In this document: positions 12,867 to 50,365 of the stretch, one piece after another
How positions within the stretch are numbered: position 1 is the first letter of the stretch
Layout of the letters: every line of letters starts with the position of its first letter
Assembly: GCA_963700595.1 (NCBI GenBank)
Contig: CAVOYE010000016.1
Location: forward strand, 2,732-66,731
Source: an uncultured Chloroflexia bacterium
GTDB lineage: Bacteria > Chloroflexota > Anaerolineae > B4-G1 > SLSP01
Reading direction: 5' to 3'
DNA length: 64,000 bases
Notes under the pieces: model-generated
Databases searched by the model: none
The model's input: only the letters and a program-made list of their open reading frames with translations
Told to the model about the DNA's origin: nothing
Made by a program: the position numbers and the translations under genes

Positions 12867-12887
12867 TTCTAAAGGCCATTTCGCCTA

Positions 12888-14157: not shown

Positions 14158-14258
14158 CGTTACTCCCTGCTACAGAATATATGCAAATAGATTACTTCTG
14201 TGAAATAGAAGAAATGGACTGCTGGCAAGACTCCGGTGTACCGATGAGACGGCACCGT

Positions 14259-34554: not shown

Positions 34555-36613
34555 TTATATAATCGCGCGAATCGCGTCGCAAATGCGTTCTACATTGGGA
34601 ATATCAGCGTCTTCCAGGGATTCACTCATGGGTATCGGCACATCGTGCGCAGCCACACGCACGACAGGCGCATCCAGCCAGTCAAACAGTTCTTCCTGTA
34701 TTATAGCAGCGACTTCACTGATAAAGGAGCCCGTGCGATAGGCTTCGGTCACGCCAATGACCCTGTCCGGTCTTTTTCACCGATGTGGAGATCGTCTCCA
34801 TATCCAGGGGTTTCAAGGTGCGAAGGTCAATAACTTCCACACTGATACCCTCTTTTGCCAGTATCTCCGCCGCTTCCAATGCCCGGAGGACCATGCGCGA
34901 ATAGGTGATAACCGTGACATCCGTCCCCTCACGTTTCACATCGGCAACACCGTAAGGAATCACATAGTCTTCATCCGGAACGTTGCCGGAATTGCCGTAA
35001 AGCATTTTGTGCTCAATAAACATCACTGGATTATCATCGCGGATCGCAGCCTTTAACAAGCCTTTGGCATCAAAGGGCGTGCTGGGCATCACGACATAAA
35101 TTCCGGGGAAGTGGGTCCACAGGGCTTCCAAACTCTGGGAGTGATGGGCGGCGATAGAGCGCCCCGCCCCACCCTCGGTGCGGACGACCATCGGGACTTT
35201 TGTTTTCCCACCGAACATATAGCGGTTTTTCGCACCCTGGTTGGCGATTTGGTCCATCGCCAGCGGTGTGAAGTCGACGTACATAATTTCGGAAATGGGG
35301 CGCAGTCCAGCCATTGCCGCGCCGACTGCAGCACCGCCGATGGTCGCCTCAGAGATGGGGGTATCACGCACACGCTCTCCGCCAAATTCATCGAAGAGCC
35401 CGCGGGTAGCCCCGTAGGCGCCGCCATACAAACCAACATCCTCACCCATGATGAAGACCTTGTCATCGCGCAGCATCTCTTCGCGCATCGCTTCCTGCAA
35501 AGCCTGGCGGTAAAGGATTTTACGTGTTCCGGGTCCGCCCTGCTTGCACAATTCGCGCAGTTCCCTTTCCTTCTGGTAATCGGCTTCAGTCCACATGAAC
35601 GGCGTGTAGACATAGAGTTCCAAATCCGCAGGATCCGGCATAGGAGAATTCAAAGCGAAATCGGTCGCTGCCTCAATGGAGGTCTCGACCTGCTGTTCAA
35701 GCGCATCAATCTCTTCTTCAGTCGCCATACCTTTGGCAACCAGAAGCGCTGCGAAATTCGGAATCGGGTCGCGCCCTTTCCATTCCGCTTCCTCTTCCTT
35801 GGTGCGGTAAGCGCGCGGGTCTGAACGTGAGTGCCCGTACCAGCGATATGTTTTCGCTTCAATAAGGTAGGGACCATTCCCGGCACGGGCGTGATCAATA
35901 GCGTCAACCACCGCATCACGCACATCCAAAACATCCATCCCATCCACGATTGTATTGGGGATGCCGTAGGCATCACCGCGGGTCGCGATATCGCACGTGG
36001 CGCATGCCTTTTCAATGGGGACAGACATACCGTATTTATTATTTTCGACAATGAAAACGACCGGTAACTGCCATAAGGCAGACAGGTTCAGGGCTTCATG
36101 GAAATTGCCGGTTTGCGCGGCGCCGTCACCGAAGAAGCACAAGACAACACGCCCGGTGCCTTTCATCTGTTCCGCCAGAGCGGCTCCGGCAGCCACCGGC
36201 AAATTACCGCCGACGATACCCGTCGCCCCAAGGTTCCCATTTTCAACATCCGCAATATGCATCGAACCACCGCGACCACCACAATAGCCTGTGGCGCGCC
36301 CGCACAGTTCCGCCAACATCTTGTTATAGTGGGTCTGATGGGCTTCTTCAGTTTTTGCCAACACCGCACCACGCGCGTAACAGTGCCCATGACCACGGTG
36401 CGTGCTGGTAATCAGGTCATCTTCACGCAGCGCCGACATCGCGCCAACCGCGACAGCCTCTTCACCGGCGTACAGGTGAGAAGCACCCTTGATGACATTG
36501 CGCCCCAGCAAATCATAAACCTGGTCCTCAAACATTCTGATTTCCCACATATGGCGCAACATTTTCAGGCTGTTTTCCTTGCCCAACTCTTGAAGCATTT
36601 TATCCTGGTCCAT
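34555..36613 (-). pseudogene. 2-oxoacid dehydrogenase E1, fused alpha-beta subunits; apparent frame break near 34762-34770
   Basis: Alpha part with the TPP motif GDGAAQTGNFHEALN..ENNKYG. The beta part (FIMGEDVGLYGGAYG..) follows in the same ORF. The last approx 65 aa (VIGVTEAYRTGSF..) are in another frame. Confidence 0.8.
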
Positions 36614-36729: not shown

Positions 36730-37491
36730 TTAAACCAGACTGACTTGAATGCCCAACGCTTGAACGGCTTCTACCATATCAGGGGGCGCACCCACATCCG
36801 TGATAATGACATTCACATCGCTTAACGCGGCGTACGATGCCACACCTTCACGTCCCCATTTCGTGCCATCCAGGACAACAACGACCTGACGGCACATCGC
36901 CACCAGAGGGCGTTTAACCGCAGCTTCGGTAGCGGTAACATCGGTGAGTCCTACCGACAGCGACAATCCATAAGCCCCGAAAAAGCCCCAGGCAATATTA
37001 TACCGCTTAAGCAGCGTCAAGCCCAACGGATCCGATAGTGAGACCGTATCAGGATGCAGTGTACCACCGGGCATCACAACGGCAATATTGGGCGCGTTCA
37101 GCATCTCTTGCGCGATAACCAGGCTGTTGGTCACGACGGTTAAATCACGAAGCTGCTTGATAAAAGGGGTAATGGTCAGGGCGGTGCTGCTGCTATCGAG
37201 AAAGATGGCTTCACCTTCGGAAATCAGGTGGCTGGCGACTTCGCCAATGCGCTGCTTTTCGACTTGCTGCTGCTGGCGCCGCCGGTTCAACGAGAGTTCG
37301 TAGATGCTGTTAACGGGAGGTATCGCGCCGCCGTAGGTCCGGACAACCAACGCGCTATCGGCTAACGCCTGCAGATCCGCACGGATGGTGACATCAGAAA
37401 CGTTGAAGCGCTCACTCAACTCGGTGACAGAAGCGCGTCCCTGTTCGACGACGAATTTCAAAATCTCTTGACGGCGTTCTTCCAGAAACAA
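36730..37491 (-). CDS. DeoR-family transcriptional regulator
   Basis: N-terminal HTH (ERRQEILKFVVEQGRASVTELSERFNVSDVTIRADL) and a C-terminal DeoR sugar-phosphate sensor domain. TTG start. Confidence 0.85.
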   Translation of the reverse strand: MFLEERRQEILKFVVEQGRASVTELSERFNVSDVTIRADLQALADSALVVRTYGGAIPPVNSIYELSLNRRRQQQQVEKQRIGEVASHLISEGEAIFLDSSSTALTITPFIKQLRDLTVVTNSLVIAQEMLNAPNIAVVMPGGTLHPDTVSLSDPLGLTLLKRYNIAWGFFGAYGLSLSVGLTDVTATEAAVKRPLVAMCRQVVVVLDGTKWGREGVASYAALSDVNVIITDVGAPPDMVEAVQALGIQVSLV

Positions 37492-37588
37492 GTTATTTCC
37501 ATTTACTTTCGATTTCTTTCATTGTATAATAAATCATAAGCGATGTCAAGCAGTTTTCGACGATATATGACCAAATGAGTCGGGTTCA

Positions 37589-37722: not shown

Positions 37723-38508
37723 ATGCAAATAGAGCTTGAACAACTTGTTAGCATGTCCACCACACTGGGTAATCCTGCTCATGACTATGTTATCCTGGGT
37801 GAAGGGAATACGTCGACACTGATGGGTGACGGCACATTCTGGGTCAAAGCCAGCGGATTCCAACTCCCCACCATACGGCGGCAAGGATTCGTGCGCGTGT
37901 CCATGGCAAAAGCGCTGGCAATCCTGGATGAAACAAACCTCAGCGATGGTGAAATAAAAACCCGTTTACTGGAAGCCAAAGTTGCTCCATTAACCGGCAA
38001 GGAACCCGCGCCAGATGATGGGATACGCCCGTCCACAGAGACCGTCTTCCACGCGATATGCCTGAACCTGGAAGGTGTGAATTTCGTGGGACACACGCAC
38101 CCAACCGCGATCAATGCATTGACCTGCTCAAACTATTTCGAGGAGGCGGTGGCGGGACGGTTGTTTCCCGATGAGATTGTGATGTGCGGCGCAGCCCCTG
38201 TCACCGTACCCTATATTGATCCGGGCATTCCCTTAGCCCGGGAAATCCGCGCGCGCATCGTGGCTTATATCCAACAATATAACGACGTTCCCAAGGTCAT
38301 CCTGATGCAAAACCACGGACTGGTTGTCCTGGGAAGCAGTGCAGAGCAGGTGCTCAACACCACCGCGATGATGGTAAAAACAGCACGGGTCATTCTGGGC
38401 ACATACGCGCTGGGCGGACCGCACTTCCTGACGGATGAAAACGTCGCGCGCATCCATTCACGCCCGGATGAAGCTTACCGCCGCAAACTTCTCGGTGGGA
38501 TGGGTTAA
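37723..38508 (+). CDS. class II aldolase/adducin-family protein
   Basis: 261 aa with GEGNTS and the metal-ligand segment FVGHTHPTAINAL. Confidence 0.75.
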   Translation: MQIELEQLVSMSTTLGNPAHDYVILGEGNTSTLMGDGTFWVKASGFQLPTIRRQGFVRVSMAKALAILDETNLSDGEIKTRLLEAKVAPLTGKEPAPDDGIRPSTETVFHAICLNLEGVNFVGHTHPTAINALTCSNYFEEAVAGRLFPDEIVMCGAAPVTVPYIDPGIPLAREIRARIVAYIQQYNDVPKVILMQNHGLVVLGSSAEQVLNTTAMMVKTARVILGTYALGGPHFLTDENVARIHSRPDEAYRRKLLGGMG

Positions 38509-38579
38509 TCTCTCTCACCACATTTAGCACTTTCTACAACAGCACATTCGCTGACATCTTCAGCCACAAAGGGAATAAA

Positions 38580-39323
38580 ATGAAAATAAGAAAAAAATAC
38601 AAAAAACAGGTCAAGCAATTTGTCCAGGTGTGCCACCGCCTGGCGAAAAACATGTACGTGACCGGATACGGAGGTAACCTGGCATGGCGCGTTGATGACG
38701 ATGTAGTCCTGATCACACCCACCCAGATGAACAAAGGGGATATCAAACGCCGGGATGTCGTTTTCATCAACCTGAAAGGCGTTGTCGTGGACGGAACCCA
38801 CCGCCCAACGGGTGAAATGCCCATGTATCTCAAATTCTTTAATGAGCGCCCGGACATTGTCTCAGTCGTCCACTGCCACCCACCCCACGTGTGCGCCATG
38901 GCGATCAGCAGCGCCAAGAACTGGTTGATGCGCCCACTGTACCCGGAATCGACGACCGAACTTGGACCGGTACCGGTGGTCCCCTACGCGCAACCCCTTA
39001 CCGAGAAACTGGCCGATAAATTCACGCCTTTTATGCAAAAATACAACAGCTTCATCATGGAAAACCACGGTTTGGTCACGATGAGCCGCGGTGATATTTT
39101 ATGGACGGTCCTGAACACCGAAGTGCTGGAAGCAACCGCGCAATCCATCACCCTCGCCCTTATGACCGGGGGAATCAAGGAACTGACAAAACAGGATGTC
39201 GTGGACCTGGGACAGGTAATGAAACAACGCGACCTGCCCCTTTTTGGCGCACCGGGTGTAAACACATCCCTGGAAGATTTATTCTTCGATGACGCCAATG
39301 CTGCATCAGAATCACAAGTTTAG
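38580..39323 (+). CDS. class II aldolase/adducin-family protein (fuculose-1-phosphate aldolase-like)
   Basis: 247 aa with GGNLAWR and VVHCHPPHVCAMA motifs. Confidence 0.75.
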   Translation: MKIRKKYKKQVKQFVQVCHRLAKNMYVTGYGGNLAWRVDDDVVLITPTQMNKGDIKRRDVVFINLKGVVVDGTHRPTGEMPMYLKFFNERPDIVSVVHCHPPHVCAMAISSAKNWLMRPLYPESTTELGPVPVVPYAQPLTEKLADKFTPFMQKYNSFIMENHGLVTMSRGDILWTVLNTEVLEATAQSITLALMTGGIKELTKQDVVDLGQVMKQRDLPLFGAPGVNTSLEDLFFDDANAASESQV

Positions 39324-39333
39324 CGAGGTTAAA

Positions 39334-40402
39334 ATGACAGAGCAAAAATCGATGCGCGTCTCCAAACTTTATGGCATCCGGGATCTACGCCTGGAAACAG
39401 GCGCTGTGCCCACCCCGGGACCGGGTGAAGTGCTGTTGAAAATTGCATCCGTGGGAACCTGCGGTTCGGATGTGCATTATTATCTCGAAGGCGGGATTGG
39501 CGACGCGATCGTCAAAGACCCCATCACCATGGGCCATGAATTCTCAGCCTGGATTGCCGAAACAGGTAAAGGGGTTGAGGATCTGGAAATTGGGCAACTT
39601 GTCGCTGTGGAGCCAGCTATCCCATGCGGCACATGCGAGTCCTGCCTCCATGGACACCCCAACCTGTGTCCCACCGTGCGCTTCTGCGGCACCCCACCGA
39701 TTGATGGCGTCTTCGCAGAATATGCGGTTATGCCTGCAGAAAACTGCTTCGTCCTGCCTGACGGTTTCTCGCCAGAAGACGGAGCGCTCCTGGAACCCCT
39801 GGGGATCGCCATTCATACGGTTGACCTGGCACATCTCAAGGTGGGACAGACGGTGGCTATCCTCGGTGCGGGACCCATAGGGTTGATGACTGCTGCGGTG
39901 GCAAAAGCCGCCGGCGCAGGGCAGATCATCATGTCGGAACCGATCAAGAGCAGGCGTGATTTTGCCTTGAGCTACTGTGCGGATATGGTCCTTAATCCGG
40001 AAGAAGATAGACATCGTATCCGCCATTATGGATGCCACCAACGGGCGGGGGGTCGATGTGGCGTTTGAAGCTGCCGGAGCAGAAGATACACCCGATCAGG
40101 CAGCGTATGTGACCCGCCCCGGCGGCAAAGTTGTGGTCGTCGGGATTCCATCGGAAGATCACATGCTGATGACCGCCTCTGTTATCCGGCGCAAGGGCCT
40201 GACCATCAAACTGGTACGGCGTATGAAACACACGTACCCACGGGCGATACGGATGGTCCAGACAGGTTTGGTGGATATCAAACCGTTAGCAACGCATCGA
40301 TTTCCACTGGAAAATATCAGAGACGCTTTTGAGATGGTCGCGGAGCACAGCGACGGCGTTTTAAGAGCGATGATCAACATCGGAGCAGAAGGCATACAAT
40401 GA
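39334..40402 (+). pseudogene. zinc-dependent polyol/sorbitol dehydrogenase (MDR family); apparent frame break near 40008-40011
   Basis: GTCGSDVHYY, GHEFSA and the structural-zinc motif CGTCESCLHGHPNLC. The first frame stops at 40068. The C-terminal third (DIVSAIMDATNGRGVDVAFEAAG..) lies in the frame that ends at 40402. Confidence 0.8.
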
Positions 40403-41556
40403 ACAACAGAGAACGTGTACGCGCGATTTTACATTATGAGGATTACGACCGGATGCCCATCGTCCACTTTGGGTATTGGCGGGAAACACTGGACAAATGG
40501 GCACTCGAAGGGCACATCACTCAAGCGCAAGCCGCAGCCTGGGGAGATGGGAACCCCACAGATGCGGATATCGCCAGGAAACTGGGCTTTGATCTTAACT
40601 GGAGCACGTGCTACAGCCCAGACACACGCCTGCGACCAGCTTTTAAGCGCGAACTCATAGAAACTTTCCCGGACGGGTCCAGGCACGTGATGAATGAAGA
40701 AGGGACCATTATCCTCGAAAAAGACAATGCGATATCGATTCCAAAGGAGATCAAGCACCTTCTGACCAACCGCCAGTCCTGGGAAGACCTTTACCTGCCC
40801 AAACTCAGTTTCGACAGCGAACGCATCACCCGCGCCGCTGTGAATGTCAACGGGAAAATGGTGCGCTTTGATCAAGGCGGCGCTGATTATTTGATCAAAG
40901 GGGAATGGGATAATCCATACGGGATCCATATCGGTAGCTTGTTTGGGGTTATCAGAAACTGGCTCGGAATCGTAGGGCTGTCCTACCTGATGGTCGACGA
41001 CCCCGACCTGCTCATCGAGATCATCGACACCGTTGGCGACCTATGCTACCAATGCACAAAGACCACCCTGGAAATGGTGGGCGCGCATTTTGACTTCGCC
41101 CATTTCTGGGAAGACATTTCATTCAAGAGCGGACCCCTGATCAGCCCCCATTACTTCAGTCAGCATGTCGGACCGCACTACAAGCGTATCACCGAACTGG
41201 TGAACAGCTACGGGATTGATATCGTATCGCTCGACAGTGACGGCAAAATCGACAAGTTAATCCCAACCTGGTTTGGCAACGGCGTGAACACCATGTTCCC
41301 CATTGAAGTCGGCACATGGGGATCAAGCATCGGACCCTGGCGGGAGCAGTACGGCACAGGGCTGCGGGGCGTGGGCGGTATGAACAAAGTCATTTTCAGC
41401 AGGGACACCAAAGCGATCGACGCCGAGATTGAACGCATCAAAGCCCTGGTTGATCTGGGGGGATATATTCCCTGCCCCGATCACAGAATAGCACCGGATG
41501 GGAAATGGGAGAACGTGCAATATTATTGCGAGAAGATGCACCAGGTTTTTGGGTGA
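40399..41556 (+). CDS. uroporphyrinogen-decarboxylase (URO-D)-like family protein
   Basis: 385 aa. N-terminal RERVRAILHYEDYDRMPI and C-terminal GGYIPCPDH segments resemble the URO-D/MtaA-like superfamily. Its start overlaps the stop of the previous gene. Confidence 0.55.
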   Translation: MNNRERVRAILHYEDYDRMPIVHFGYWRETLDKWALEGHITQAQAAAWGDGNPTDADIARKLGFDLNWSTCYSPDTRLRPAFKRELIETFPDGSRHVMNEEGTIILEKDNAISIPKEIKHLLTNRQSWEDLYLPKLSFDSERITRAAVNVNGKMVRFDQGGADYLIKGEWDNPYGIHIGSLFGVIRNWLGIVGLSYLMVDDPDLLIEIIDTVGDLCYQCTKTTLEMVGAHFDFAHFWEDISFKSGPLISPHYFSQHVGPHYKRITELVNSYGIDIVSLDSDGKIDKLIPTWFGNGVNTMFPIEVGTWGSSIGPWREQYGTGLRGVGGMNKVIFSRDTKAIDAEIERIKALVDLGGYIPCPDHRIAPDGKWENVQYYCEKMHQVFG

Positions 41557-41561
41557 GATCG

Positions 41562-42644
41562 ATGATGAATACGGATGTTATGCGGCAGCTTGTGGCTGAA
41601 GCAGAATCAGGTGATAAAGCGATGCCCACCGCCCGGGCTGCTGCCAGGCTGTGGAGTTATGATGATAGCACGCTTGAAGACTTCCGCTACAGCGCAAACG
41701 CGATATACACATTCCGCCAGCATGGCATCCGGCGTTTTATGCGGCTTACATGGGAAGGTGACAAAGCTGTTGAGCACATTGCGGCCGAACTGGATTACCT
41801 TGCATACCTGGCTGAACGCCAATTTCCGGTCGTGCAGCCTGTACTGTCAAACCAGGGACGGCGGATTGAGACGATATCCAGTCCCTATGCAAACTTTTAC
41901 GCTGTGACCTTTACCGCTGCCGGGGGTGCATACAAGCAGGTTGAAACGCTAACCGTCGATGAAATCGAGACATGGGGGGCGATGCTGGGACGATTGCACG
42001 TCTTGTCAGAAGGTTTCCACCCTCGTGCAGAACATCAGCGTCCAGCCTGGACCGATGTTATGGCGCAATACGAAGATTGGGTTCCTGAGAGCGAAACGGT
42101 TGTCAGCCAATATCTGAACGAGGCGCGTGCATGGCTGGCAACGCTGCCCAATGAACAAACCAGCTACGGATTAATCCATTGGGATTTTGAGCCCGATAAT
42201 CTGACATGGAGCCCCACGGGGAACGAAGTTTTTGACTTTGATGACGCAGCCTATTTCTGGTATGCGGCGGACATTGCCTTCGCGCTGGACGATGTCCTGG
42301 ATCAATCCGCTGACTCGGCGCGCGCAATTATTCAGAATTTTTTAAAAGGCTACCGGCGCCAGCGCGAACTGGCGTCTGTGTGGGTTGATTCACTGCCCTT
42401 CTTCGTCAGACTGATGCGCGTCATGAAAACCGCCCGTGTTTTTCATGCTTTTGCCGGCACGCATGCCGAACTGGACCCGCCCTGGTTAGCCACATTACGG
42501 GAAAGGCTTATGCATACCTGTAAGGCGCAACAGCAAGACTACAGGCAGCCTTTTCTGGCTCCCCTTTCGGCAGCTGAACATGAGATATGGGGAACCCTTG
42601 TTCACGTAAACACGTTATTTCAGAAAACCAGTATCTCGTTTTAG
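41562..42644 (+). CDS. phosphotransferase (APH/choline-kinase fold) family protein
   Basis: Catalytic loop LIHWDFEPDNL followed by FDFDDA (Brenner/DxD-type motifs of small-molecule kinases). ATG at 41562, just after the upstream stop. Confidence 0.65.
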   Translation: MMNTDVMRQLVAEAESGDKAMPTARAAARLWSYDDSTLEDFRYSANAIYTFRQHGIRRFMRLTWEGDKAVEHIAAELDYLAYLAERQFPVVQPVLSNQGRRIETISSPYANFYAVTFTAAGGAYKQVETLTVDEIETWGAMLGRLHVLSEGFHPRAEHQRPAWTDVMAQYEDWVPESETVVSQYLNEARAWLATLPNEQTSYGLIHWDFEPDNLTWSPTGNEVFDFDDAAYFWYAADIAFALDDVLDQSADSARAIIQNFLKGYRRQRELASVWVDSLPFFVRLMRVMKTARVFHAFAGTHAELDPPWLATLRERLMHTCKAQQQDYRQPFLAPLSAAEHEIWGTLVHVNTLFQKTSISF

Positions 42645-42731
42645 AACTACTGGAAGTCGGTCTTAAAAATAGCGCTTTGTTAAAGTGATTCTTGAAAAAA
42701 CCAGGCAGCAGGCTAGCGTATATTGTGGGAT

Positions 42732-42759
42732 GGATTCCCGCGTGCGCGGGAATGACAAA
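42732..42759. repeat. 28-nt palindromic-core repeat, copy 1
   Basis: ggattcccgcgtgcgcgggaatgacaaa. The core ttcccgcg-tg-cgcgggaa is self-complementary. Confidence 0.9.
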
Positions 42760-42861
42760 TCTAGTTTAGCGATAAGAGTCCTGATGAATTGTGTTGAATG
42801 TTTTGCCAATATTCAGTTTATCAGAACAATAGAGTCGGCACGCATAAAAATGTATAAAGAG

Positions 42862-42889
42862 GGATTCCCGCGTGCGCGGGAATGACAAA
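42862..42889. repeat. 28-nt palindromic-core repeat, copy 2
   Basis: Identical 28-mer, 102 nt downstream of copy 1. Confidence 0.9.
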
Positions 42890-42970
42890 ACGACCAATTT
42901 GAAATGTGACCTGACGTTTTATGGTCTATTACTATCAGATATGCCTTTACAATCTACCAGCAGGTGAGAT

Positions 42971-44332
42971 ATGGATATAGAAGATAAAATACACGCTTTG
43001 GAAGAACAATTAAATGATTTCTCAGCAGAAAAACGCAGCGCAGCCCTTTCAAGTTTATTGACGCTGGCGAAACAAGAAACCCTCGAATGCAGTCCGGAGA
43101 TGGAAGTCGCCAATATGCACTCCCATACCTTTTTCTCGTATAACGGCTATGATTACTCACCTTCGGCTCTTGCCTGGTTGGCAAAGCGGCAGGGATACAA
43201 ACTGATGGGGATCGTAGATTTTGATGTTTTAGATGGCGTGGACGAATTCCTCACAGCTTGTGACGCTGTTGGTGTTCGCGGCACAGCAGGTATGGAAACC
43301 CGGGTATTCCTGCCGGAGTTTGCCAGCCGTGAAATCAATTCACCCGGGGAACCGGGTATTTTTTACCATATGGGGATTGGCTTTGTAAGCAGTCTGGTCC
43401 CAGATACGGAACCGGAAGCCGGGGCAATCCTGGCAGATATGCGCACACGCGCTTACCGGCGGAACCGCGATGTCGTACAGCGCGTCAACGCTTATCTGGA
43501 ACCGCTCAAAATTGACTATGACACCGATGTGCTCCCGTTAACACCCAGCGGAAACGCGACCGAACGCCATATATGCGCGGCTTATGTCGCAGCAGCTAAC
43601 GCGCAGACCCCTGATCCTGTGAGATTCTGGGCGGATAAATTAACGACAGGATCGGATGGCATCGCAGCGATTATCAACGATGGACCGGCAATCCAGAACC
43701 TTGTCCGGTCAAAGCTTATGAAGCGCGGGGGGGCAGGCTATGTGCAGCCCGGACCTGAAACCTTCCCGGCAATTGACGATGTGAATAAGGTCATCACAGC
43801 ATGCGGCGCGCTGCCCTGCGCGACCTGGCTCGATGGCACCAGCGCGGGTGAAAGCGCAGAAGAAGAACTGCTCAACCTGCTGATTGGCAAAGGGATTGTT
43901 GCCTTCAACATCGTTCCTGACCGGAACTGGAATATCAAGAATCCACAAGAGAAATCCGAAAAACTGGAACAGCTTTACAGGGTTGTTGACCTGGCGCGTA
44001 GTCTGGATTTGCCGATCAATGTGGGCACGGAAATGAACGCATTCGGGAAAAAGACCATCGATGATTTTAACGCCCCAGAACTTGCTCCGGTGCGCGATGC
44101 CTTTATGCATGGCGCCTACTTCATCTATGGGCATACGGCGATGCAGCGCGGCGCAGGGATGGGCTATCAAAGCCAATGGACGCAGCAATACCTTCCATCC
44201 AGAGCTGAACGCAACGATTTCTACACGCAAGTGGGACGCCTGGTCAATCCCGGCAAAGAGTCCCTGAGGAACCTTGGGAATCTATCCGGAAAACTCACGC
44301 CATCTCAGGTTCTATCCCATATCAGCGGTTAA
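42971..44332 (+). CDS. PHP-domain (polymerase/histidinol-phosphatase-like) metal-dependent phosphoesterase family protein
   Basis: ANMHSHTFFSYNGYDYSP and a GIVDFD segment near the N-terminus. 453 aa. Confidence 0.5.
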   Translation: MDIEDKIHALEEQLNDFSAEKRSAALSSLLTLAKQETLECSPEMEVANMHSHTFFSYNGYDYSPSALAWLAKRQGYKLMGIVDFDVLDGVDEFLTACDAVGVRGTAGMETRVFLPEFASREINSPGEPGIFYHMGIGFVSSLVPDTEPEAGAILADMRTRAYRRNRDVVQRVNAYLEPLKIDYDTDVLPLTPSGNATERHICAAYVAAANAQTPDPVRFWADKLTTGSDGIAAIINDGPAIQNLVRSKLMKRGGAGYVQPGPETFPAIDDVNKVITACGALPCATWLDGTSAGESAEEELLNLLIGKGIVAFNIVPDRNWNIKNPQEKSEKLEQLYRVVDLARSLDLPINVGTEMNAFGKKTIDDFNAPELAPVRDAFMHGAYFIYGHTAMQRGAGMGYQSQWTQQYLPSRAERNDFYTQVGRLVNPGKESLRNLGNLSGKLTPSQVLSHISG

Positions 44333-44365
44333 CCATAACGCACACAACGCAATAAAGGAAAAAAG

Positions 44366-44953
44366 ATGAAAAAGTCACGCGGTGCTAAAACAATTGTCTA
44401 CCCGACACCGGTTTTTATCGTGGGCACCTATGCTACAGACGGCAAACCCAATGCGATGGCGGTCGCCTGGGGCGGCATATGCTGTTCGCGCCCTCCATGC
44501 GTCTCCATATCGGTGCGAAAAGCAACGTATACCTACGGTAACCTGATGCAGCGTCGCGCCTTTACCGTCAATATTCCTGGGGAAAAACATGTGAAATACG
44601 CCGATTATTTTGGGCTTGTTTCGGGTCGAAATGTTGACAAGTTTGCCATAACAGGCCTTACGCCCGTCAAATCCGACCTGGTCGATGCCCCCTATATTGA
44701 CGAATTTCCTCTGAACCTGGCATGTAAAGTATTGGAAGTTCACGAGATTGGACTGCACACTCTGTTCGTTGGTGAAATTATGGATGTTTTGGCAGATGAA
44801 AGCGTCTATAAAGCTGATGAAAAACTCGACATACGGAAAGTCATGCCCGTTATCTGGGCGCCGGATGATGGGGGTTATTACGGCATCGGACAGTATCTGG
44901 GTGAAAGTTTTAACATCGGCAATGAAATAACGAGCGAATCCGAAAAGCATTAA
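44366..44953 (+). CDS. flavin reductase-like (FMN-binding split-barrel) protein
   Basis: 195 aa. The PNAMAVAWGG..ISVRK pattern is typical of the flavin reductase domain. Confidence 0.65.
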   Translation: MKKSRGAKTIVYPTPVFIVGTYATDGKPNAMAVAWGGICCSRPPCVSISVRKATYTYGNLMQRRAFTVNIPGEKHVKYADYFGLVSGRNVDKFAITGLTPVKSDLVDAPYIDEFPLNLACKVLEVHEIGLHTLFVGEIMDVLADESVYKADEKLDIRKVMPVIWAPDDGGYYGIGQYLGESFNIGNEITSESEKH

Positions 44954-45033
44954 GTGGCAAATTGCTCAGGGTTGGTCAAAGCAATGGATAATACAGTGGA
45001 GCGCACAGCTTGATAAACAACGCGCCAGTATTT

Positions 45034-46128
45034 ATGGAATTGACAACAAATCTGGATGTAGAGGCATTCTGGGAAGAAAATACCCGCTGCCTGGCGTTCA
45101 CGACGCAAAAACCACGCTGCTCGATGAGTTTCTCGCCAGACGATCATTGGATATTTCAATTTGTCGATGTCCCATCTACGCTGCGATACTACCAGGACAG
45201 AGCTTATCGTGACGCACTGCATCAGCATGTTAACGAGATCACCCTTCGCGAGGTTGGAATAGCATTTTTCGAAGAACATACCTGGGAATATGCACCGAAA
45301 CGCATCGAAAATTTATTCGGGTGTGAATTTACATATCATGAAGGGAGCACACCCTGGTTAACGCCGGTGACTGAAGATCCGGAAGCTTTCTCAGATATAT
45401 TAGACAATGCTGAGGCAACCGATCTTGCATCCTGGTGTTTACCACAGGAATTTATCTCAGAATGGAACACCAGGGAATCCAACGGGATGGAACGCCCAAG
45501 ATTAGGAACCGGCAGCCGGGGACCGGCGACCATCATAACGTCTGTCCTTCGACCGGAAACAGCCCTGCTCTGGATGTATGATCACCCAGCACTCATGCGC
45601 CGCTTCAGCGACCTGTTGGCGGAAAAAATGGTAGCGCTCAACCGCATACTCAGACAATTCAGCGGCACTATGATGGATGGCTGGTGGATTACTGATGACA
45701 ACTGCGCATTATTCAACCGCAAACTCTATAAAGACTATTGTTATCCGGTTTTGGAGGCTGTGCTTGAAGCCTTCGCTCCAGGAAACGCACCACGATACCA
45801 ACACTCGGACAGCGCAATGGGTCATTTGCTGGATCTGCAATATGCCCTGGGTATCCGGTCTGTCAATTATGGACCCGAAGTGGATGCAGCACATATTCGG
45901 AAAGCTATGCCAGAGGCCCTGATTAATGGGCAAATGCCGCCTCTGATGCTGCGCAATGCGCGTCCTGAGGTCATCAAACAGCGGATTATCTCTGATTTTG
46001 AAAAAGCCGGGCAGTCAGGTGGCCTTAACATAACAACAGCAGGCTCATTGGCGGCTGGAACAGGTGTTGGCAGAATGCGCTGGATGATGCAGGTCGTGCA
46101 AGACCACTGCAGGTATGGCGAAAACTGA
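45034..46128 (+). CDS. URO-D-like family protein (second copy, divergent)
   Basis: About 365 aa of the same general fold class as 40399-41556, but with low similarity to it. An alternative TTG start exists at 45010. Confidence 0.45.
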   Translation: MELTTNLDVEAFWEENTRCLAFTTQKPRCSMSFSPDDHWIFQFVDVPSTLRYYQDRAYRDALHQHVNEITLREVGIAFFEEHTWEYAPKRIENLFGCEFTYHEGSTPWLTPVTEDPEAFSDILDNAEATDLASWCLPQEFISEWNTRESNGMERPRLGTGSRGPATIITSVLRPETALLWMYDHPALMRRFSDLLAEKMVALNRILRQFSGTMMDGWWITDDNCALFNRKLYKDYCYPVLEAVLEAFAPGNAPRYQHSDSAMGHLLDLQYALGIRSVNYGPEVDAAHIRKAMPEALINGQMPPLMLRNARPEVIKQRIISDFEKAGQSGGLNITTAGSLAAGTGVGRMRWMMQVVQDHCRYGEN

Positions 46129-46190
46129 TATTGATATGATCAAACATTGTTTGCATTAAATTCATTTCTGATAACTAAAGGAGAACTCAC

Positions 46191-47951
46191 GTGGAAGATA
46201 AATATGAAGTCTACAAAAGAGCAACTGCACCGCTGCCGGAAAAGAACCGGATATGGCCGCTGTATGGCGCGGGATTTGAAAGTCTGGGGGTCAATGGACA
46301 ACCTATCGAAGTGCCAATGCCCACTTACGGAGATAACGAGCTTCTTGTCCGGCACGATGCGGTAGGGCACTGCTTCTCAGATATTAAGGTGATCCGCGCC
46401 GGACAAACGCATCCGCGTATCTATCGTGATATGGCTGTTGATCCCATCGTATTGGGTCATGAGGTGAGTATCACAGTGGTTGGTGTTGGCAAAAAGCTCA
46501 GCGATCAATACAGAATTGGCGATCGATTCATTGTGCAGGCAGACATTTTTGTGAATGGTGTGGGTTATGCCTATGGTTACGAGATCCAGGGGGGCTTATC
46601 CGATTACGCGGTCATCGACCAACGCGTGTTGAACGGCGACCACGGAAATTATCTGATCCCCATGCTCGATGAAAAAACCGGTTACGCCGAAGCCGCCCTA
46701 ACAGAACCCTGGGCATGCGTCGTAGCCGCTTATCAACTGCGCTACCGGTCGCAGATCCGGAATGGTGGGACGCTATGGATCATCGGGACCGGGGACTCTC
46801 ATGCAGAATACACGATCAGCGCCGGCTTTGATGAACAGTCACATCCCGCCACATTGCTGCTGACACACGTACCCGCACAATTTGATGGCTGGCTGCGGGC
46901 GCGCGCCGCCGAATTGGGCATAGAAGTGCTCAATGTTCCAACCCTTCCTGAGAATGTTGAGACGGACGACTCACCCGCTTCCCCCGCAGAAACAACCGGC
47001 ACCGGGAAAGGTATCGACGATATCATCATTCTGGGCGCCGACGCAGAGCTTGTCGAAAAAGCCAGCCCGAATTTAGCCAGTTATGGTGTGCTGGCTGTTA
47101 TCGCTGACAAACCTATGGAACGCAAAGTTAATCTGGATGTTGGTCGTATCCACTATAACAGGTGGCTCTATATCGGCAGTCAATCAACCGACATCTCAAG
47201 CGCTTACAGCGATGTGGCAACCCGCTCCACCTTAAAACCAGCAGGCATCAGCTGGTTTGTCGGCGCCGGTGGTCCTATGGGTAGAATGCACGTCCAACGG
47301 GCTATACAGTCCCCAGAAAATCCCAAAGTGATTGTGTGCACCGATATCAGCGACCAGCGCCTGGAAGACCTGAAAGAGAGCTTCAAAGAAGAGGCTATGG
47401 AGAAGGGCATCGACTTTGTCTGCCTTAATCCCACCAACAAGGACGAATACCAGGCGGAAATGGACATTTTGAAAACAAAAGGGTTCGATGATATCATCAT
47501 TCTGGCGCCTGTTCCCGCCGTCATCGCTGACGCGGCGACGTATTTAGGTCCTAAAGGCGTGATGAATATCTTCGCAGGCGTCCCCCGGGGTAAAACCGCC
47601 GGTATTGACCTGACGGGGATCTATATGGACGGGACCAGAGTCATCGGTCACTCAGCCTCCACCATAGAAAACATGCGCTTTATGCTGGAGCTGGCGGAAA
47701 CCGGGCAGCTCTCACCCAACCGGTCTGTAGCTGCAATCGGCTCACTTGATGCCTCGCTGGACGGCCTGCAGGCAGTGGCAACCACTAAATACCCCGGTAA
47801 AGTGGTCATCTACCCCCACATCAAACACCTGCCCATCACACCGCTGGCGGATCTGAAGGACACATTGCCCACAGTCTATGCCAAACTCAAGAACGGACGT
47901 GAGTGGACCACAGAAGCCGAAAGAGAATTATTGCGGGTCATGCTTGAATAA
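46191..47951 (+). CDS. MDR-superfamily zinc dehydrogenase with a large internal insertion
   Basis: GroES-like N-domain with GHCFSD and GHEVS. The Rossmann motif GAGGPMG appears only about 170 aa after TEPWAC. GTG start preceded by aaaggag. Confidence 0.65.
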   Translation: MEDKYEVYKRATAPLPEKNRIWPLYGAGFESLGVNGQPIEVPMPTYGDNELLVRHDAVGHCFSDIKVIRAGQTHPRIYRDMAVDPIVLGHEVSITVVGVGKKLSDQYRIGDRFIVQADIFVNGVGYAYGYEIQGGLSDYAVIDQRVLNGDHGNYLIPMLDEKTGYAEAALTEPWACVVAAYQLRYRSQIRNGGTLWIIGTGDSHAEYTISAGFDEQSHPATLLLTHVPAQFDGWLRARAAELGIEVLNVPTLPENVETDDSPASPAETTGTGKGIDDIIILGADAELVEKASPNLASYGVLAVIADKPMERKVNLDVGRIHYNRWLYIGSQSTDISSAYSDVATRSTLKPAGISWFVGAGGPMGRMHVQRAIQSPENPKVIVCTDISDQRLEDLKESFKEEAMEKGIDFVCLNPTNKDEYQAEMDILKTKGFDDIIILAPVPAVIADAATYLGPKGVMNIFAGVPRGKTAGIDLTGIYMDGTRVIGHSASTIENMRFMLELAETGQLSPNRSVAAIGSLDASLDGLQAVATTKYPGKVVIYPHIKHLPITPLADLKDTLPTVYAKLKNGREWTTEAERELLRVMLE

Positions 47952-47984
47952 GCGTGCACAATAACACATACTGTGGAGGCTTCA

Positions 47985-49175
47985 ATGCTGCCTGAATCCC
48001 ATGAGACCCTGCCCCCACCTCTGATGACCTCAGAGGTGGGATCGTTCGCGCAGAGCACGATTATCGAGCGGAAACCCGAGATCATCAGACGGGTTATCGC
48101 GGACAACGCATATCCGGCAGATATCGTTGAAGCCCTGCACCGCTTTGCCCTTGAAATCGCCTCAGAGCCAATCACACAGTTGGAAGAAATTACAGAAGAC
48201 AGCGCATTATGGAACGCCCAGGTTGCACAGTATACAGGCAAAAGCTGGCTGGAGATACCGTGGTATTTTGCAGAAACGTACTTTTATCGCCGGCTCCTGG
48301 AAATCGTGGGTTATATGCGTCCTGGACCCATGTATGCGCTTGACCCATTCCTGCCACAAAAAATTACGCAGGAAAAGGCAGCGATAGAACAGCTGCAATC
48401 CAACTGGCAAGCGATCGAAGAGACCCCTGCCTCTGAGCGGTTTACATACCTGCTCCACGCCTCTCTCTGGGGAAACCGGGCAGACCTCAGTAATTTTACA
48501 GTAAAAGAGACGGCGCAGCAGGGAAGCGACACCCATAACCTGCGCCAGCACATTATCATCGACCACACACAAGCCGTTCGCAGGACCCTTGCTGCGGGTG
48601 TAAACAAAGTCATGTTTATCAACGACAATGTGGGGGCGGACAGCTTATGGGATTTGCTGTTAGCAGATTTCCTGCTGGAGCAGCGTTGGGTACAAAGCAT
48701 CGTGTTTCACCTAAAAAACCGTCCTTTTTTCGTCTCAGACGCGATGCCCACAGACATCATGCGGGTCATTGAAAAACTACGCACGAGCCCGGAACCTTTG
48801 CATTCTGTGGGAAACCGGTTGCCAGAATGGCTGGTGTTGGGCAAACTTCAATTAGAAGCTGACCCCTTCTGGACCAGCTTTAAGACGTTCCACGCCCTGC
48901 CCGCACCGGTGCATGATCAACTTTCTGAAGCGAATCTCATCATTCTCAAGGGTGATGTCAATTACCGTCGCTTACTGGACGACCGACATTGGGCACCGGC
49001 AACGAAAGTGGAAACCATAACGGCGCAATTTCCAAAGCCGTTTTTAATCATCCGGACGTTAAAAGGCGAAATTATCGCCGGATTAGCACCGGGTCAAGCC
49101 GAAAAAATTAGCGTACAGGACCCAGCGTGGCTGATTAACGGCAAACGCGGTCTAATACAATTGGTCACAGCATAA
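47985..49175 (+). CDS. DUF89/ARMT1-like damage-control phosphatase family protein
   Basis: WGNRADLS and ILKGDVNYRRL motifs. ATG at 47985 follows ggagg. Confidence 0.7.
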   Translation: MLPESHETLPPPLMTSEVGSFAQSTIIERKPEIIRRVIADNAYPADIVEALHRFALEIASEPITQLEEITEDSALWNAQVAQYTGKSWLEIPWYFAETYFYRRLLEIVGYMRPGPMYALDPFLPQKITQEKAAIEQLQSNWQAIEETPASERFTYLLHASLWGNRADLSNFTVKETAQQGSDTHNLRQHIIIDHTQAVRRTLAAGVNKVMFINDNVGADSLWDLLLADFLLEQRWVQSIVFHLKNRPFFVSDAMPTDIMRVIEKLRTSPEPLHSVGNRLPEWLVLGKLQLEADPFWTSFKTFHALPAPVHDQLSEANLIILKGDVNYRRLLDDRHWAPATKVETITAQFPKPFLIIRTLKGEIIAGLAPGQAEKISVQDPAWLINGKRGLIQLVTA

Positions 49176-49198
49176 ACAACCATAACATAGGGGGATAT

Positions 49199-49990
49199 AT
49201 GGGTAAAGTCTTTCAGGATAAAGTGGCACTGGTAACCGGCGGCGCGCAGGGATTGGGAGCGGCGATCTGCAAGCGACTGGCGCAAGAAGGCGCGCATGTG
49301 GTGGTCGCGGATCTCAATTTACCGGGCGCAGAGATGACCTCAGGAGAGATCATCTCTGATCTGGACCGCAAAAGCCTAGCGGTAAAAGTTGATGTCACCG
49401 ACGAAACCCAGGTCGCTGCCATGGTCGACCGGACCATTGACGCATTTGGCAAAGTGGATATCGTCGTATCCAACGCAGGGGTTCTGATCGCAGATTCGAT
49501 TGAACAATTCCCGGCAGAGAAATGGCGATTAGTGATGAATGTGAACCTGTTTGGATATTTCCTGGTCGCCAAACACGCTGCCCGGGTGATGATTCCACAG
49601 AAAAGTGGCGTCATCGTCCAAATCAACTCAAAATCAGGGAAAAAGGGCAGCTACAAAAGTTCCGCCTACGCGGCATCCAAATTCGGCGGAATCGGATTGA
49701 CCCAGAGCCTCGCCCTGGAGCTGGCTGAACACAATATCCGCGTGAACTCCATTTGTCCGGGCAACCTATTAGATTCACCTTTGTGGACGGATTCCTTATA
49801 CAAACAATATGCGATCAAATGGGGCATCACGGAAGAGGAAGTGCGTCAGAAATATATTGACCAGGTGCCCATGAAACGGGGATGCACTTACGAGGACATC
49901 ACCAATACCCTGGTGTTCCTGGCATCAGATCAAGCCAGTTATATGACGGGACAGGCAATCAATGTCACCGGCGGGCAGGAGATGCGCTAG
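49199..49990 (+). CDS. short-chain dehydrogenase/reductase (sorbitol-6-phosphate dehydrogenase-like)
   Basis: TGGAQGLG, NAG, and S..YxxSK (SSAYAASK) motifs. Confidence 0.85.
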   Translation: MGKVFQDKVALVTGGAQGLGAAICKRLAQEGAHVVVADLNLPGAEMTSGEIISDLDRKSLAVKVDVTDETQVAAMVDRTIDAFGKVDIVVSNAGVLIADSIEQFPAEKWRLVMNVNLFGYFLVAKHAARVMIPQKSGVIVQINSKSGKKGSYKSSAYAASKFGGIGLTQSLALELAEHNIRVNSICPGNLLDSPLWTDSLYKQYAIKWGITEEEVRQKYIDQVPMKRGCTYEDITNTLVFLASDQASYMTGQAINVTGGQEMR

Positions 49991-50023
49991 TTCATAAGTT
50001 TTGGGTACAAAGGGAGTTTTCAC

Positions 50024-50365
50024 ATGTTAGAAAATCAACTGACAGTTGTCTGGAGCAGTGCAGATCCGGCAGTCGCGCACAAAGTGTGCTTTATGTATAC
50101 CCACAACGCAAAACGGCGCGGGTGGTTTGAAAATGTCACACTGGTCATCTGGGGTCCCTCTGCTGAATTGACGGTGCGGGACACCGCCATACAGGATGCC
50201 ATCAAGGCTATGGTCGCCGATGGTGTTGTGGTCGAAGCGTGTAAAGCATGTTCGGATTCTTACGGCGCTTCGGAGGCGCTGACAGCGCTGGGTGTGGATG
50301 TGAAATATATGGGGGTTCCGCTGACCCAATACCTGAAGGAAGGCTCCAAAGTCCTGACGTTTTAG
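50024..50365 (+). CDS. DsrE/DsrF-like small protein
   Basis: 113 aa with an alpha/beta pattern and a conserved Cys pair (EACKACSD). The family call is tentative. Confidence 0.4.
   Translation: MLENQLTVVWSSADPAVAHKVCFMYTHNAKRRGWFENVTLVIWGPSAELTVRDTAIQDAIKAMVADGVVVEACKACSDSYGASEALTALGVDVKYMGVPLTQYLKEGSKVLTF

Follow-up and report, generated by a model that had tools for sequence, protein, structure and literature searches.

A conserved, modular operon of Chloroflexota built around a PHP-fold protein, a long zinc-dependent dehydrogenase and an SrlD-like dehydrogenase, with a possible role in 6-deoxyhexose catabolism

Results

Layout of the array

A 64,000-nucleotide stretch of the genome of an uncultured Chloroflexia bacterium (GenBank assembly GCA_963700595.1, contig CAVOYE010000016.1, positions 2,732 to 66,731), called here the window, carries on its plus strand between positions 37723 and 50365 an array of 12 co-directional genes, divergent from the gene of a DeoR-family regulator. 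The arrangement is a real operon, far beyond chance and conserved across the phylum Chloroflexota; the same neighbourhood recurs in dozens of independent genomes. Its constant core consists of a class II aldolase, a metallohydrolase of the PHP fold, a long Zn-dependent medium-chain dehydrogenase/reductase (long MDR) and an SrlD-like short-chain dehydrogenase/reductase (SDR), often accompanied by a fused E1 and an E2 of the pyruvate dehydrogenase (PDH) type. Around this core, the window encodes a second aldolase-fold protein, a Zn-dependent polyol dehydrogenase (Zn-ADH), two proteins of the uroporphyrinogen decarboxylase fold (UroD1 and UroD2), a kinase of the APH fold, a flavin-reductase-like protein, a DUF89 phosphatase and a small DsrE-like protein (Table 1).

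The tight run of genes and the divergent DeoR gene had been noticed in a sequence-only reading of the window, and both were borne out, with all open reading frames (ORFs) found in their places; each of the family assignments made there was reproduced by Pfam or NCBIfam. The intergenic distances are, in order, 71, -35, -4, -52, 326, 33, 56, 62, 21, 23 and 33 nt. The count of 13 genes had to be reduced to 12, as the Zn-ADH is a single gene that an extra base at 40008 splits into the ORFs 39289-40068 and 39977-40402. The array has the borders first proposed, but the conserved unit is wider and takes in the PDH-like E1 and E2 genes upstream of deoR. Two starts are probably further downstream than the ORF limits: that of the Zn-ADH around 39334, and that of the APH kinase near 41562 instead of 41505, as judged by comparison with the 348-residue orthologue from the closest related locus (L091). 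Scans of the window for tRNA genes and Rfam families were empty.

Conservation and modularity

All ORFs of 84 related loci (numbered with the prefix L) were clustered de novo, and families were counted over the 49 loci with enough flanking sequence. An aldolase (AldA or AldB) was present in 40 of these, and the long MDR and the SDR in 42 each. E1 lay within 10 kb of the PHP gene in 22, in three different arrangements, and a MtlD-like dehydrogenase was found in 19. The other families were Zn-ADH (21 loci), UroD1 (18), DUF89 (12), UroD2 (11) and flavin reductase (10). When the window is added to the 84 loci, the AldA family occurs in 48 of the 85 gene maps. The tightest unit is formed by the PHP, long MDR and SDR genes, usually preceded by an aldolase gene, and the latter two are adjacent nearly everywhere. 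Neither the window array nor any of the related loci examined contains a component of the phosphotransferase system (PTS). The sequence-only reading had noted several features that fit no textbook pathway; the members of the set indeed do not map cleanly onto separate characterised pathways.

The operon is modular, and its loci fall into types. In type A, exemplified by L029, a single 19-kb operon reads DeoR-RhaM-ABC-RhaA-AldA-RhaB-PHP-MDR-SDR-MtlD-like-E1-E2 (ABC, ATP-binding cassette transporter). The core is here part of the rha operons, placed between rhaB and the E1/E2 genes. RhaA scores 696 bits on PF06134, the rhamnulokinase-like FGGY kinase 502 bits on TIGR02627, and the MtlD-like dehydrogenase 318 bits for a cut-off of 356. 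Every locus with RhaA has AldA or AldB, frequently in one run with RhaA and RhaB, and the de novo ORF families of these loci showed no further aldolase family. Linkage to fucose genes was found in L062, which reads LacI-xylulokinase-FucI-rhamnulokinase-like kinase-PHP-SDR, with the long MDR and MtlD-like genes on the opposite strand and no aldolase.

Type B, to which the window belongs, reads DeoR-(lyxose/mannose-isomerase-like)-(PfkB kinase)-(MtlD-like)-E1-E2, divergent from AldA-ZnADH-UroD1-PHP-(FlavR-UroD2)-MDR-DUF89-SDR. The window, L004 and L091 are of this type without the isomerase, PfkB and MtlD-like genes, and in the window and L091 AldB and the APH kinase have been added. As had been noted before, the window array encodes neither an isomerase nor a transporter. 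Type C reads DeoR-E2-long E1 (816 aa)-xylose-isomerase-like TIM barrel-PHP-MDR-SDR-MtlD-like, and has neither aldolase nor kinase. Four loci (L043, L046, L074 and L083, at about 4800-15400 each) carry E2, a long fused E1 of 816-825 residues that is about 32% identical to that of the window, PHP, long MDR, SDR and a MtlD-like gene. The TIM barrel gene lies between E1 and PHP in the first three; in L043, DeoR precedes E2 and the MtlD-like gene is on the opposite strand. Glycosidase genes are found in core loci as well, namely a GH106 rhamnosidase in L090 and a GH95 fucosidase-family gene in L008.

Table 1. Features of the array, its regulator and the associated E1/E2 genes (window positions)
Feature	Position	Strand	Assignment
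E2	33167-34544	-	Dihydrolipoamide acyltransferase; Pfam lipoyl, E3-binding and catalytic domains; at least 3 frameshifts
Fused E1	34561-36613	-	Fused alpha-beta subunits of a PDH-type 2-oxoacid dehydrogenase dependent on thiamine pyrophosphate (TPP); Pfam E1_dh, Transket_pyr, Transketolase_C
DeoR	36730-37491	-	DeoR-family repressor, RhaR-like; Pfam HTH_DeoR and DeoRC; divergent from the array
Control region	37496-37549	.	Three overlapping elements: tandem repeats, conserved block, divergent promoters
AldA	37723-38508	+	Class II (Zn) aldolase, Aldolase_II; best family matches are the aldolase half of RhaEW-type bifunctional enzymes
AldB	38580-39323	+	Second class II aldolase-fold enzyme, FucA/OtnC/MtnB-like, under every cut-off
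Zn-ADH	39289-40402	+	Zn-dependent polyol/secondary-alcohol dehydrogenase (Tdh/IolM/sorbitol-dehydrogenase-like); one gene, broken at 40008
UroD1	40399-41556	+	Divergent TIM barrel of the URO-D/MtaA fold; Pfam 23.4 bits, just below cut-off
APH kinase	41505-42644	+	APH-fold small-molecule kinase; Pfam APH 70.9 bits
Hairpin element	42729-42759 and 42859-42889	+	31 nt, two copies, in the APH-PHP spacer (326-nt gap)
PHP protein	42971-44332	+	PHP-fold metal-dependent hydrolase (predicted), about 450 aa; anchor of the conserved core
Flavin reductase	44366-44953	+	Flavin-reductase-like FMN-binding protein (accessory); Pfam Flavin_Reduct 119.5 bits
UroD2	45010-46128	+	Second URO-D-fold protein (accessory); PF01208 53.6 bits
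Long MDR	46191-47951	+	Long Zn-MDR dehydrogenase, 586 aa, with a second, degenerate Rossmann-like segment inserted; groups with SorE/YggP-type MDRs
DUF89	47973-49175	+	Predicted DUF89/ARMT1 metal-dependent sugar-phosphate phosphatase (accessory); PF01937 207.4 bits, cut-off 25
SDR	49199-49990	+	SrlD-like SDR; NCBIfam PRK12384 (sorbitol-6-phosphate dehydrogenase) 380.7 bits, cut-off 307
DsrE-like	50024-50365	+	Small DsrE-like protein, last gene of the array; Pfam 27.3 bits

Proteins of the conserved core

The two aldolase-fold proteins score 78 and 123 bits on the Pfam Aldolase_II family. The sequence of AldA retains the HxH and third-His zinc ligands, the acid/base Glu and the GN(T/S)S phosphate loop. 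AldB replaces AldA directly upstream of the PHP gene in L023, L053, L065, L078 and L084; both occur together only in the window and L091. AldB reaches 106 bits on the OtnC model NF043034, for a cut-off of 250. This score, and the lack of a DUF1537 kinase here, set the locus apart from the tetronate pathway (OtnK, OtnC, OtnI).

The PHP protein scores 23 bits on the Pfam family, under the cut-off of 26.4, and single-sequence searches of the PDB returned nothing useful. Its AlphaFold2 model has a mean predicted local distance difference test (pLDDT) of 86, and Foldseek matched it to 2yb1, 3o0f and 9etk with a probability of 1.0. The nearest folds are those of the TrpH/Cv1693 phosphatase of 3'-phosphoadenosine 5'-phosphate (pAp) (2yb1) and of the 5'-3' exoribonuclease RNase AM (9etk), with 13-19% identity and E-values around 1e-7. 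With this branch the protein shares the fold, the N-terminal HxH, the Asp/Glu and the later His metal ligands. It differs by its low identity and by about 150 extra residues in a helical insert and a C-terminal extension, and the C-terminal DxH appears in the alignment to be replaced by ExN. Residues H50, H52, D83, D85, E109, H200, D288, E354 and H388 are invariant. The place of the gene within sugar operons makes a nucleotide substrate unlikely.

More than 6700 homologues were found. Among the top 120 listed, identities are 60-82%, the named sources are almost all Anaerolineae or Chloroflexi, and the named proteins are all "hypothetical". When one genome of each species was scanned with a pattern, at least 577 encoded a relative, nearly all of them from Chloroflexota. 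The family is discrete, with 183 clusters at the 50% identity level with E-values up to 1e-30. As modelled, the protein has the PHP fold, a (beta/alpha)7 barrel with His, Asp and Glu as metal ligands, and belongs to a new family of predicted hydrolases. One locus (L008, 7130-15805) encodes UroD1, an APH kinase and PHP, followed by the GH95-family hydrolase, a sugar-1-phosphate nucleotidyltransferase and an aldo-keto reductase, and has no long MDR or SDR, indicating that the PHP protein can work in another, possibly salvage-type, context.

The long MDR has C61, H90, E91 and E172 as invariant ligands of the catalytic Zn, lacks the lobe binding the structural Zn, and carries an insert of about 180 residues. 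The closest annotated relatives are a long MDR from Deinococcus sp. AJ005 (34% identity), followed by E. coli yggP and Klebsiella and Serratia sorE (27-29%), to which it aligns in two pieces around the insert; no NCBIfam model was matched at its cut-off. Several members are labelled "L-sorbose 1-phosphate reductase" by JGI. In plasmid p380k of Deinococcus sp. AJ005 (L214, 11192-15946), the full-length MDR belongs to an operon SDR-long MDR-FGGY kinase-GntR, which faces genes for a mannose-6-phosphate isomerase, an AGE epimerase, a ROK kinase and a sugar ABC transporter. This cultured organism offers an experimental handle on the long-MDR family.

The best PDB match of the SDR is the sorbitol-6-phosphate dehydrogenase of Erwinia (5o3z, 250 bits; next match 163 bits), with about half of the residues identical as counted by eye in the printed alignment.

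The E2 of the window was compared by tblastn with the intact E2 of L004 (457 aa), giving 67-78% identity over three frames; the E1 is 76% identical to that of L004, with a frame change. On the NCBIfam PDH models, the E1 halves of the intact L004 orthologue score 415 bits for beta (cut-off 321) and 380 for alpha (cut-off 394), and E2 scores 364 (cut-off 445). Two divergent E1 lineages are linked to the core, with 76-80% and about 32% identity. A gene for a GlpX-type fructose-1,6-bisphosphatase (27242-28213, plus strand) lies upstream of E2/E1 in the window and likewise in L004 (1-632); the synteny therefore reaches beyond the array.

Accessory proteins

UroD1 has no NCBIfam match and no PDB match by profile, and a single-sequence search of the PDB gave nothing useful. 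Its AlphaFold2 model has a pLDDT of 69 and is closest in Foldseek to MtaA (4ay8/4ay7) and URO-D (2eja), with E-values around 1e-6 and 11-15% identity. The top sequence matches listed are 63-86% identical. In place of the HxC...C zinc motif, which is absent, H235, E238, D239, C359, D361 and H362 are invariant. According to the model, UroD1 represents a highly conserved family of the MtaA/URO-D fold without characterised member. A homologue adjoins the GH106 gene in L090, together with PHP, long MDR and SDR, and another lies three genes from the GH95 gene in L008. The same held for a single-sequence PDB search with UroD2.

The MtaA/URO-D superfamily comprises methylcobamide:CoM methyltransferases and uroporphyrinogen decarboxylase. 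The likeness lies in the TIM barrel of UroD1 seen by Foldseek and in the Pfam match of UroD2; the differences are the missing HxC...C motif of UroD1, the context of glycan and sugar catabolism, and the lack of a corrinoid partner. The sequence-only reading had pointed to the latter, and no corrinoid-binding or B12-domain protein was found in the array or in the Pfam-annotated loci, nor was an activase found nearby.

An exact-sequence look-up of the DUF89 protein gave no match. Orthologues of the DsrE-like protein directly follow the SDR in L004, L075 and L091, and are found further downstream in L011 and L027.

The best NCBIfam match of the APH kinase is homoserine kinase, with 58 bits for a cut-off of 271; the SrkA and thiamine kinase models are also far below cut-off. 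The kinase was seen only in the window, in L091 and L092, and in L008 (45% identity), and is, judging from this distribution, a lineage-specific addition. The presence of an APH-fold kinase with class II aldolase-fold proteins and alcohol dehydrogenases had suggested a salvage of the MtnK/MtnB kind, or a "DHAP shunt" (DHAP, dihydroxyacetone phosphate), acting on 5-deoxy or 5-methylthio pentoses. AldB does have a match to the MtnB model TIGR03328, but its 60.6 bits (27.1 for AldA) are far under the cut-off of 137. The kinase matches no MtnK model in NCBIfam and is absent from almost all related loci, and neither an MtnA isomerase nor a phosphorylase is encoded. This chemistry, which the sequence-only reading had raised as a parallel, is highly improbable.

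Regulatory region

The DeoR protein of the window is 60-63% identical to those of window-type loci, 43-48% to those of rhamnose-type loci such as L029, and 28% to that of the rha cluster of Deinococcus deserti. At the start of its gene, a tandem TTTCCA-N5-TTTCGA-N4-TTTCAT (37496-37522) has a spacing of 10-11 bp. It is unique in the 64 kb on both strands, the mean in shuffled sequences being 0.17. A strict scan for three TTTCGA hexamers with at least 16 of 18 matches found none, the site of the window scoring 15 of 18. In most related loci, only a shorter conserved block is detectable and not the full tandem. This block (CTTTCGATTTCTTTCA at 37506-37521, also written CTTTCGATTNCTTTCA) is conserved in L091 and L004 and is carried by eight distinct loci, at the start of deoR in most of them. 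Divergent sigma-70-like promoters overlap these elements, at 37502-37530 on the plus strand and 37549-37521 on the minus strand, and are the best two such sites in 15 kb.

In Chloroflexus aurantiacus, TCGAAA was shown by electrophoretic mobility shift assay to be the site of the DeoR-type RhaR, which binds four tandem copies and is released from its operator by L-rhamnulose (PMC3870299). The TTTCGA of the window is the reverse complement of this half-site, with three hexamers here versus four published sites. A RhaR-like DeoR repressor may control the array from the overlapping divergent promoters, with the tandem as candidate operator.

Repeat pair and surroundings

A repeat pair of 28 nt had been reported in the gap of 326 nt between the APH and PHP genes. 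The pair is present, but the unit, (C)TGGATTCCCGCGTGCGCGGGAATGAC(G) (28-31 nt), extends to 31 nt, with 30 of 31 bases identical between the copies, and each copy folds as a hairpin (-15.6 and -14.3 kcal/mol). The orthologous spacers of L091 (156 nt) and L092 do not contain the element. An exact 25-mer of it was matched in more than 120 metagenome contigs, which come from many habitats and whose flanks are unrelated, and its depth in sediment runs is extremely high. The repeat is a dispersed insertion resembling repetitive extragenic palindromes (REP) or miniature inverted-repeat transposable elements (MITE), outside the conserved design of the operon. An array of clustered regularly interspaced short palindromic repeats (CRISPR) was considered and rejected, as there is mostly one copy per contig and spacings vary (11, 37-39 and 99 nt).

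The region is flanked by genes listed as a sulfatase (19237-20337, minus strand), a SulP-STAS-rhodanese sulfate permease (24960-27200, plus strand) and a GxGYxYP putative glycoside hydrolase (54006-55697, plus strand). Homologues of UroD1 in L088 and L089 also adjoin a sulfatase. These neighbours hint at the use of sulfated, deoxyhexose-rich glycans. An EamA-family membrane protein (52691-53605, minus strand) scores 150 bits on TIGR03340, "phosphonate utilisation associated", for a cut-off of 288; its gene is not conserved beside the array in the other loci compared.

Integrity of the genes

Comparison by tblastn with intact orthologues revealed frame changes in three genes of the window, the Zn-ADH, the fused E1 and the E2, amounting to at least five within about 7 kb: one extra base at 40008 in the Zn-ADH, one change near 34766-34776 in the fused E1, within a run of five T, and at least three in E2. 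Such runs are prone to assembly indels. The reading frame is unbroken in each of the other 11 array genes. Sediment metagenomes of marine and freshwater origin contain near-identical sequence; the extra base at 40008 is missing from a short-read contig of a sediment metatranscriptome, and one nucleotide at 34766 is missing from a short-read contig as well. L091, the closest relative, comes from a short-read assembly and has E2, E1, DeoR and all 12 array genes in unchanged order and without breaks, including a Zn-ADH of 351 residues and an E2 of 460; its PHP protein is 82% identical to that of the window.

As the short-read contigs lack the extra bases and the genes of L091 are intact, the indels of the window most probably arose in assembly, or are at most peculiar to one strain. 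In the population the genes are intact, and the metatranscriptome contig indicates that they are expressed. Other genes of the window may also carry such errors. The frame changes suggest a decaying, non-functional locus, but this would have to be reconciled with independent contigs free of two of them, with the position of one in a T run, with the 11 unbroken array genes and with an intact relative, and is scarcely credible.

Discussion

A proposed pathway and its alternatives

The sequence-only reading had pointed to DeoR-controlled catabolism of a phosphorylated sugar or polyol, which the comparison of loci supports. More precisely, the array is proposed to be the local form of a Chloroflexota-wide catabolic operon for a sugar of the 6-deoxyhexose type, similar to rhamnose or fucose, or for a polyol or substituted form of such a sugar. 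This proposal stands at about an even chance. In its favour are the conservation of the core, its linkage to rha and fuc genes and to GH106 and GH95 genes, the kinship of AldA with the aldolase half of RhaEW-type enzymes, the RhaR-like repeats at deoR and the frequent nearness of E1. Gene content and families, the conserved and modular neighbourhood, these linkages, the operator-like repeats and the intactness of the genes in the population are observed. The substrate, the catalytic steps of the lower module and the roles of the PHP protein, the long MDR and the URO-D-like proteins are what we infer from the gene families and their neighbourhoods.

The operon would combine swappable entry modules with a constant lower module. 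The entry modules would yield a ketose 1-phosphate, elsewhere by means of RhaM/RhaA/RhaB, of FucI with FGGY kinases, or of a lyxose/mannose-type isomerase with a PfkB kinase. The window would use instead the Zn polyol dehydrogenase, UroD1 and the APH-fold kinase: probably, the dehydrogenase would oxidise a polyol or a modified sugar, UroD1 would catalyse some step and the kinase would phosphorylate. AldA, for which the paralogue AldB could substitute, would cleave the ketose 1-phosphate into DHAP and a lactaldehyde-type C3 aldehyde. The PHP protein, the long MDR and the SDR, with the MtlD-like dehydrogenase in relatives, would together with E1/E2 convert the remaining carbon by NAD-linked oxidations to pyruvate and acetyl-CoA. 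This end of the pathway is proposed by analogy with the rha operon of D. deserti, which LutABC closes after RhaEW and the rhamnulokinase. Phosphorylated intermediates may be hydrolysed by DUF89 and perhaps by the PHP protein, and UroD1, UroD2, the flavin reductase and the DsrE-like protein would have accessory roles, perhaps the removal of a substituent, for example a methyl group.

Several observations weigh against this proposal. By tblastn, none of RhaA, RhaB, RhaM, FucI, the MtlD-like dehydrogenase or a sugar ABC transporter is encoded in the 64-kb window, so plain L-rhamnose or L-fucose is not the substrate. AldA shares only 28% identity with the RhaE domain of RhaEW from D. deserti, and the SDR is much closer to true sorbitol-6-phosphate dehydrogenase (250 bits) than to the RhaW domain (38% identity). 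The long MDR, the SDR and the MtlD-like protein have their nearest characterised relatives among enzymes acting on hexitol or ketose phosphates and not on C3 compounds, and a phosphohydrolase has no obvious job between lactaldehyde and acetyl-CoA. In L043, L046, L074 and L083, PHP-MDR-SDR-E1/E2 are kept without aldolase or kinase. The gene tables that were read show no E3 gene, although no search was aimed at it. Lastly, the function of every member is deduced from its gene.

The loci without an aldolase, the kinship of the dehydrogenases and the attachment of E1/E2 in three arrangements suggest a route without aldol cleavage. In such a route, the long MDR would reduce the 6-deoxy-L-ketose 1-phosphate at C2 and the SDR or the MtlD-like enzyme would reoxidise C5, giving a 1-deoxy-ketohexose 6-phosphate, which copies the logic of the L-sorbose pathway. 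E1/E2, acting like acetoin dehydrogenase on the alpha-hydroxy methyl ketone, would then release acetyl-CoA and a tetrose 4-phosphate, to be processed by the PHP protein, the aldolase-fold proteins or both, by dephosphorylation or epimerisation. The adjacency of the long MDR and SDR genes nearly everywhere fits this scheme, as do their closest characterised relatives, which are consecutive enzymes of the sorbose pathway (sorE/yggP and SrlD, 250 bits), the MtlD-like dehydrogenase (318 bits, cut-off 356), the linkage of E1/E2 in three arrangements with two divergent E1 lineages, and the loci without aldolase, among which L062 has FucI and kinases. L-Rhamnulose 1-phosphate and L-fuculose 1-phosphate differ only at C4 and, on chemical grounds, would give the same tetrose. 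Yet every RhaA locus has an aldolase, often contiguous with RhaA/RhaB and with its catalytic residues kept, E1 and E2 score as ordinary PDH components, and the role of the PHP protein is left unexplained. Moreover, the long-MDR homologue of Deinococcus sp. AJ005 has an SDR and an FGGY kinase as neighbours and lacks both E1/E2 and PHP genes around it, and to our knowledge no reaction of the proposed kind of cleavage has been described. The route is the main alternative but is considered unlikely.

By this chemistry of reduction, reoxidation and cleavage to acetyl-CoA and a tetrose phosphate, the module of PHP, long MDR and SDR, with the MtlD-like enzyme in relatives, and an E1/E2 dedicated to it would form an undescribed 6-deoxyhexose route in which no lactaldehyde or propanediol is lost. 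The PHP protein would then be a new sugar-phosphate enzyme, and the URO-D-like proteins new sugar-modifying enzymes, for instance corrinoid-independent demethylases. This combination is considered equally unlikely.

It could also be argued that the core is an ordinary funnel of ketose and hexitol phosphates, of the sorbose, sorbitol or mannitol type, leading to fructose 6-phosphate, parked in sugar islands where its adjacency to rha and fuc genes has no functional meaning. The SDR is above the cut-off for sorbitol-6-phosphate dehydrogenase, there are the MtlD-like and SorE-like matches, and DUF89 is a family of sugar-phosphate phosphatases. In the known sorbose, sorbitol and mannitol pathways, however, the phosphorylated substrates are supplied by the PTS, which is missing from every locus examined. 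The core is enclosed within the rha operons by rhaB and E1/E2 and does not lie beside them, an aldolase is present in 40 of the 49 loci, and the DeoR operator resembles the RhaR site. Such a funnel is improbable.

The pathway could finally be run in the opposite direction, with the aldolase joining DHAP and an aldehyde, the dehydrogenases adjusting the product, and the PHP or DUF89 protein freeing a polyol or rare sugar as osmolyte or electron sink. Pairs of a mannitol-making MtlD-type dehydrogenase and a phosphatase are known (NCBIfam NF046057), two phosphatases are encoded in window-type loci, and many loci are without kinase. The same operons, however, comprise a DeoR repressor, ABC importers, isomerases, kinases and glycosidases, and the linkage to the PDH-like E1/E2 points to carbon leaving the pathway rather than to a released product; biosynthesis is very improbable.

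Comparison with known systems

The closest parallel to the proposed 6-deoxyhexose operon is the RhaEW rhamnose regulon of Chloroflexales (Rodionova et al. 2013, PMC3870299), both RhaEW activities of which were validated in Chloroflexus and Bacillus (PMC3870299). Each has a DeoR-family regulator with tandem hexamers, TCGAAA in the regulon and TTTCGA-like in the reverse complement here; the class II aldolase and the SDR are distant homologues of the RhaE and RhaW halves, and RhaM, RhaA, RhaB and ABC genes are present in the related loci of Chloroflexota. In contrast to the regulon, the aldolase and the SDR are encoded apart, and two uncharacterised genes (PHP and long MDR) lie between them; identities are 28% (RhaE) and 38% (RhaW), and SrlD is the nearer relative of the SDR. 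RhaA, RhaB, RhaM and the transporter are missing from the window, which has PDH-like E1/E2 attached and adds the Zn polyol dehydrogenase, the URO-D-like proteins, the APH kinase, DUF89, the flavin reductase and the DsrE-like protein. The locus would work like a RhaEW-type rhamnose regulon but is not a member of it, because the window has no isomerase or kinase of that system, the aldolase and SDR are split and distant, and the constant part is made of uncharacterised families.

The rha cluster on a plasmid of D. deserti (L093: RhaM, DeoR, RhaI, RhaEW, RhaB, LutABC) shows the same succession of regulator, isomerase, kinase and aldolase/dehydrogenase, followed by conversion of the C3 product to pyruvate. 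LutABC, which converts lactate to pyruvate, comes last there, whereas the loci of Chloroflexota have PHP, the long MDR, sometimes the MtlD-like enzyme, and E1/E2.

With the L-sorbose enzymes SorE, an MDR that reduces L-sorbose 1-phosphate, and SorD/SrlD, an SDR, the core shares the adjacent MDR-SDR pair, an SDR over the SrlD cut-off and an MDR whose closest named relatives are sorE and yggP. It differs by the absence of a PTS, by an MDR with an insert of about 180 residues and 27-29% identity to SorE, and by its partners, which are deoxyhexose genes, an aldolase, PHP and E1/E2. A literature search found no paper on the protein families of the array in the context of sugar operons.

Significance

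Anaerolineae and their relatives are abundant degraders of carbohydrates in sediments, digesters and sludge, and few have been cultured. The operon is among their more widespread sugar loci, with PHP relatives in at least 577 species genomes and thousands of metagenome homologues for each core protein. The PHP-like hydrolase, the long MDR and UroD1 are its most constant or conserved proteins and have no characterised member, the nearest homologues listed being 60-90% identical. Solving the module would give functions to several large families of "hypothetical" proteins. Rhamnose and fucose are common in pectin and in ulvan- and fucoidan-type algal glycans. The solution would show how the lactaldehyde half of these sugars is disposed of by these bacteria without the known routes through FucO, AldA, Lut or microcompartments, and a new sugar cleavage dependent on TPP and lipoyl might emerge.

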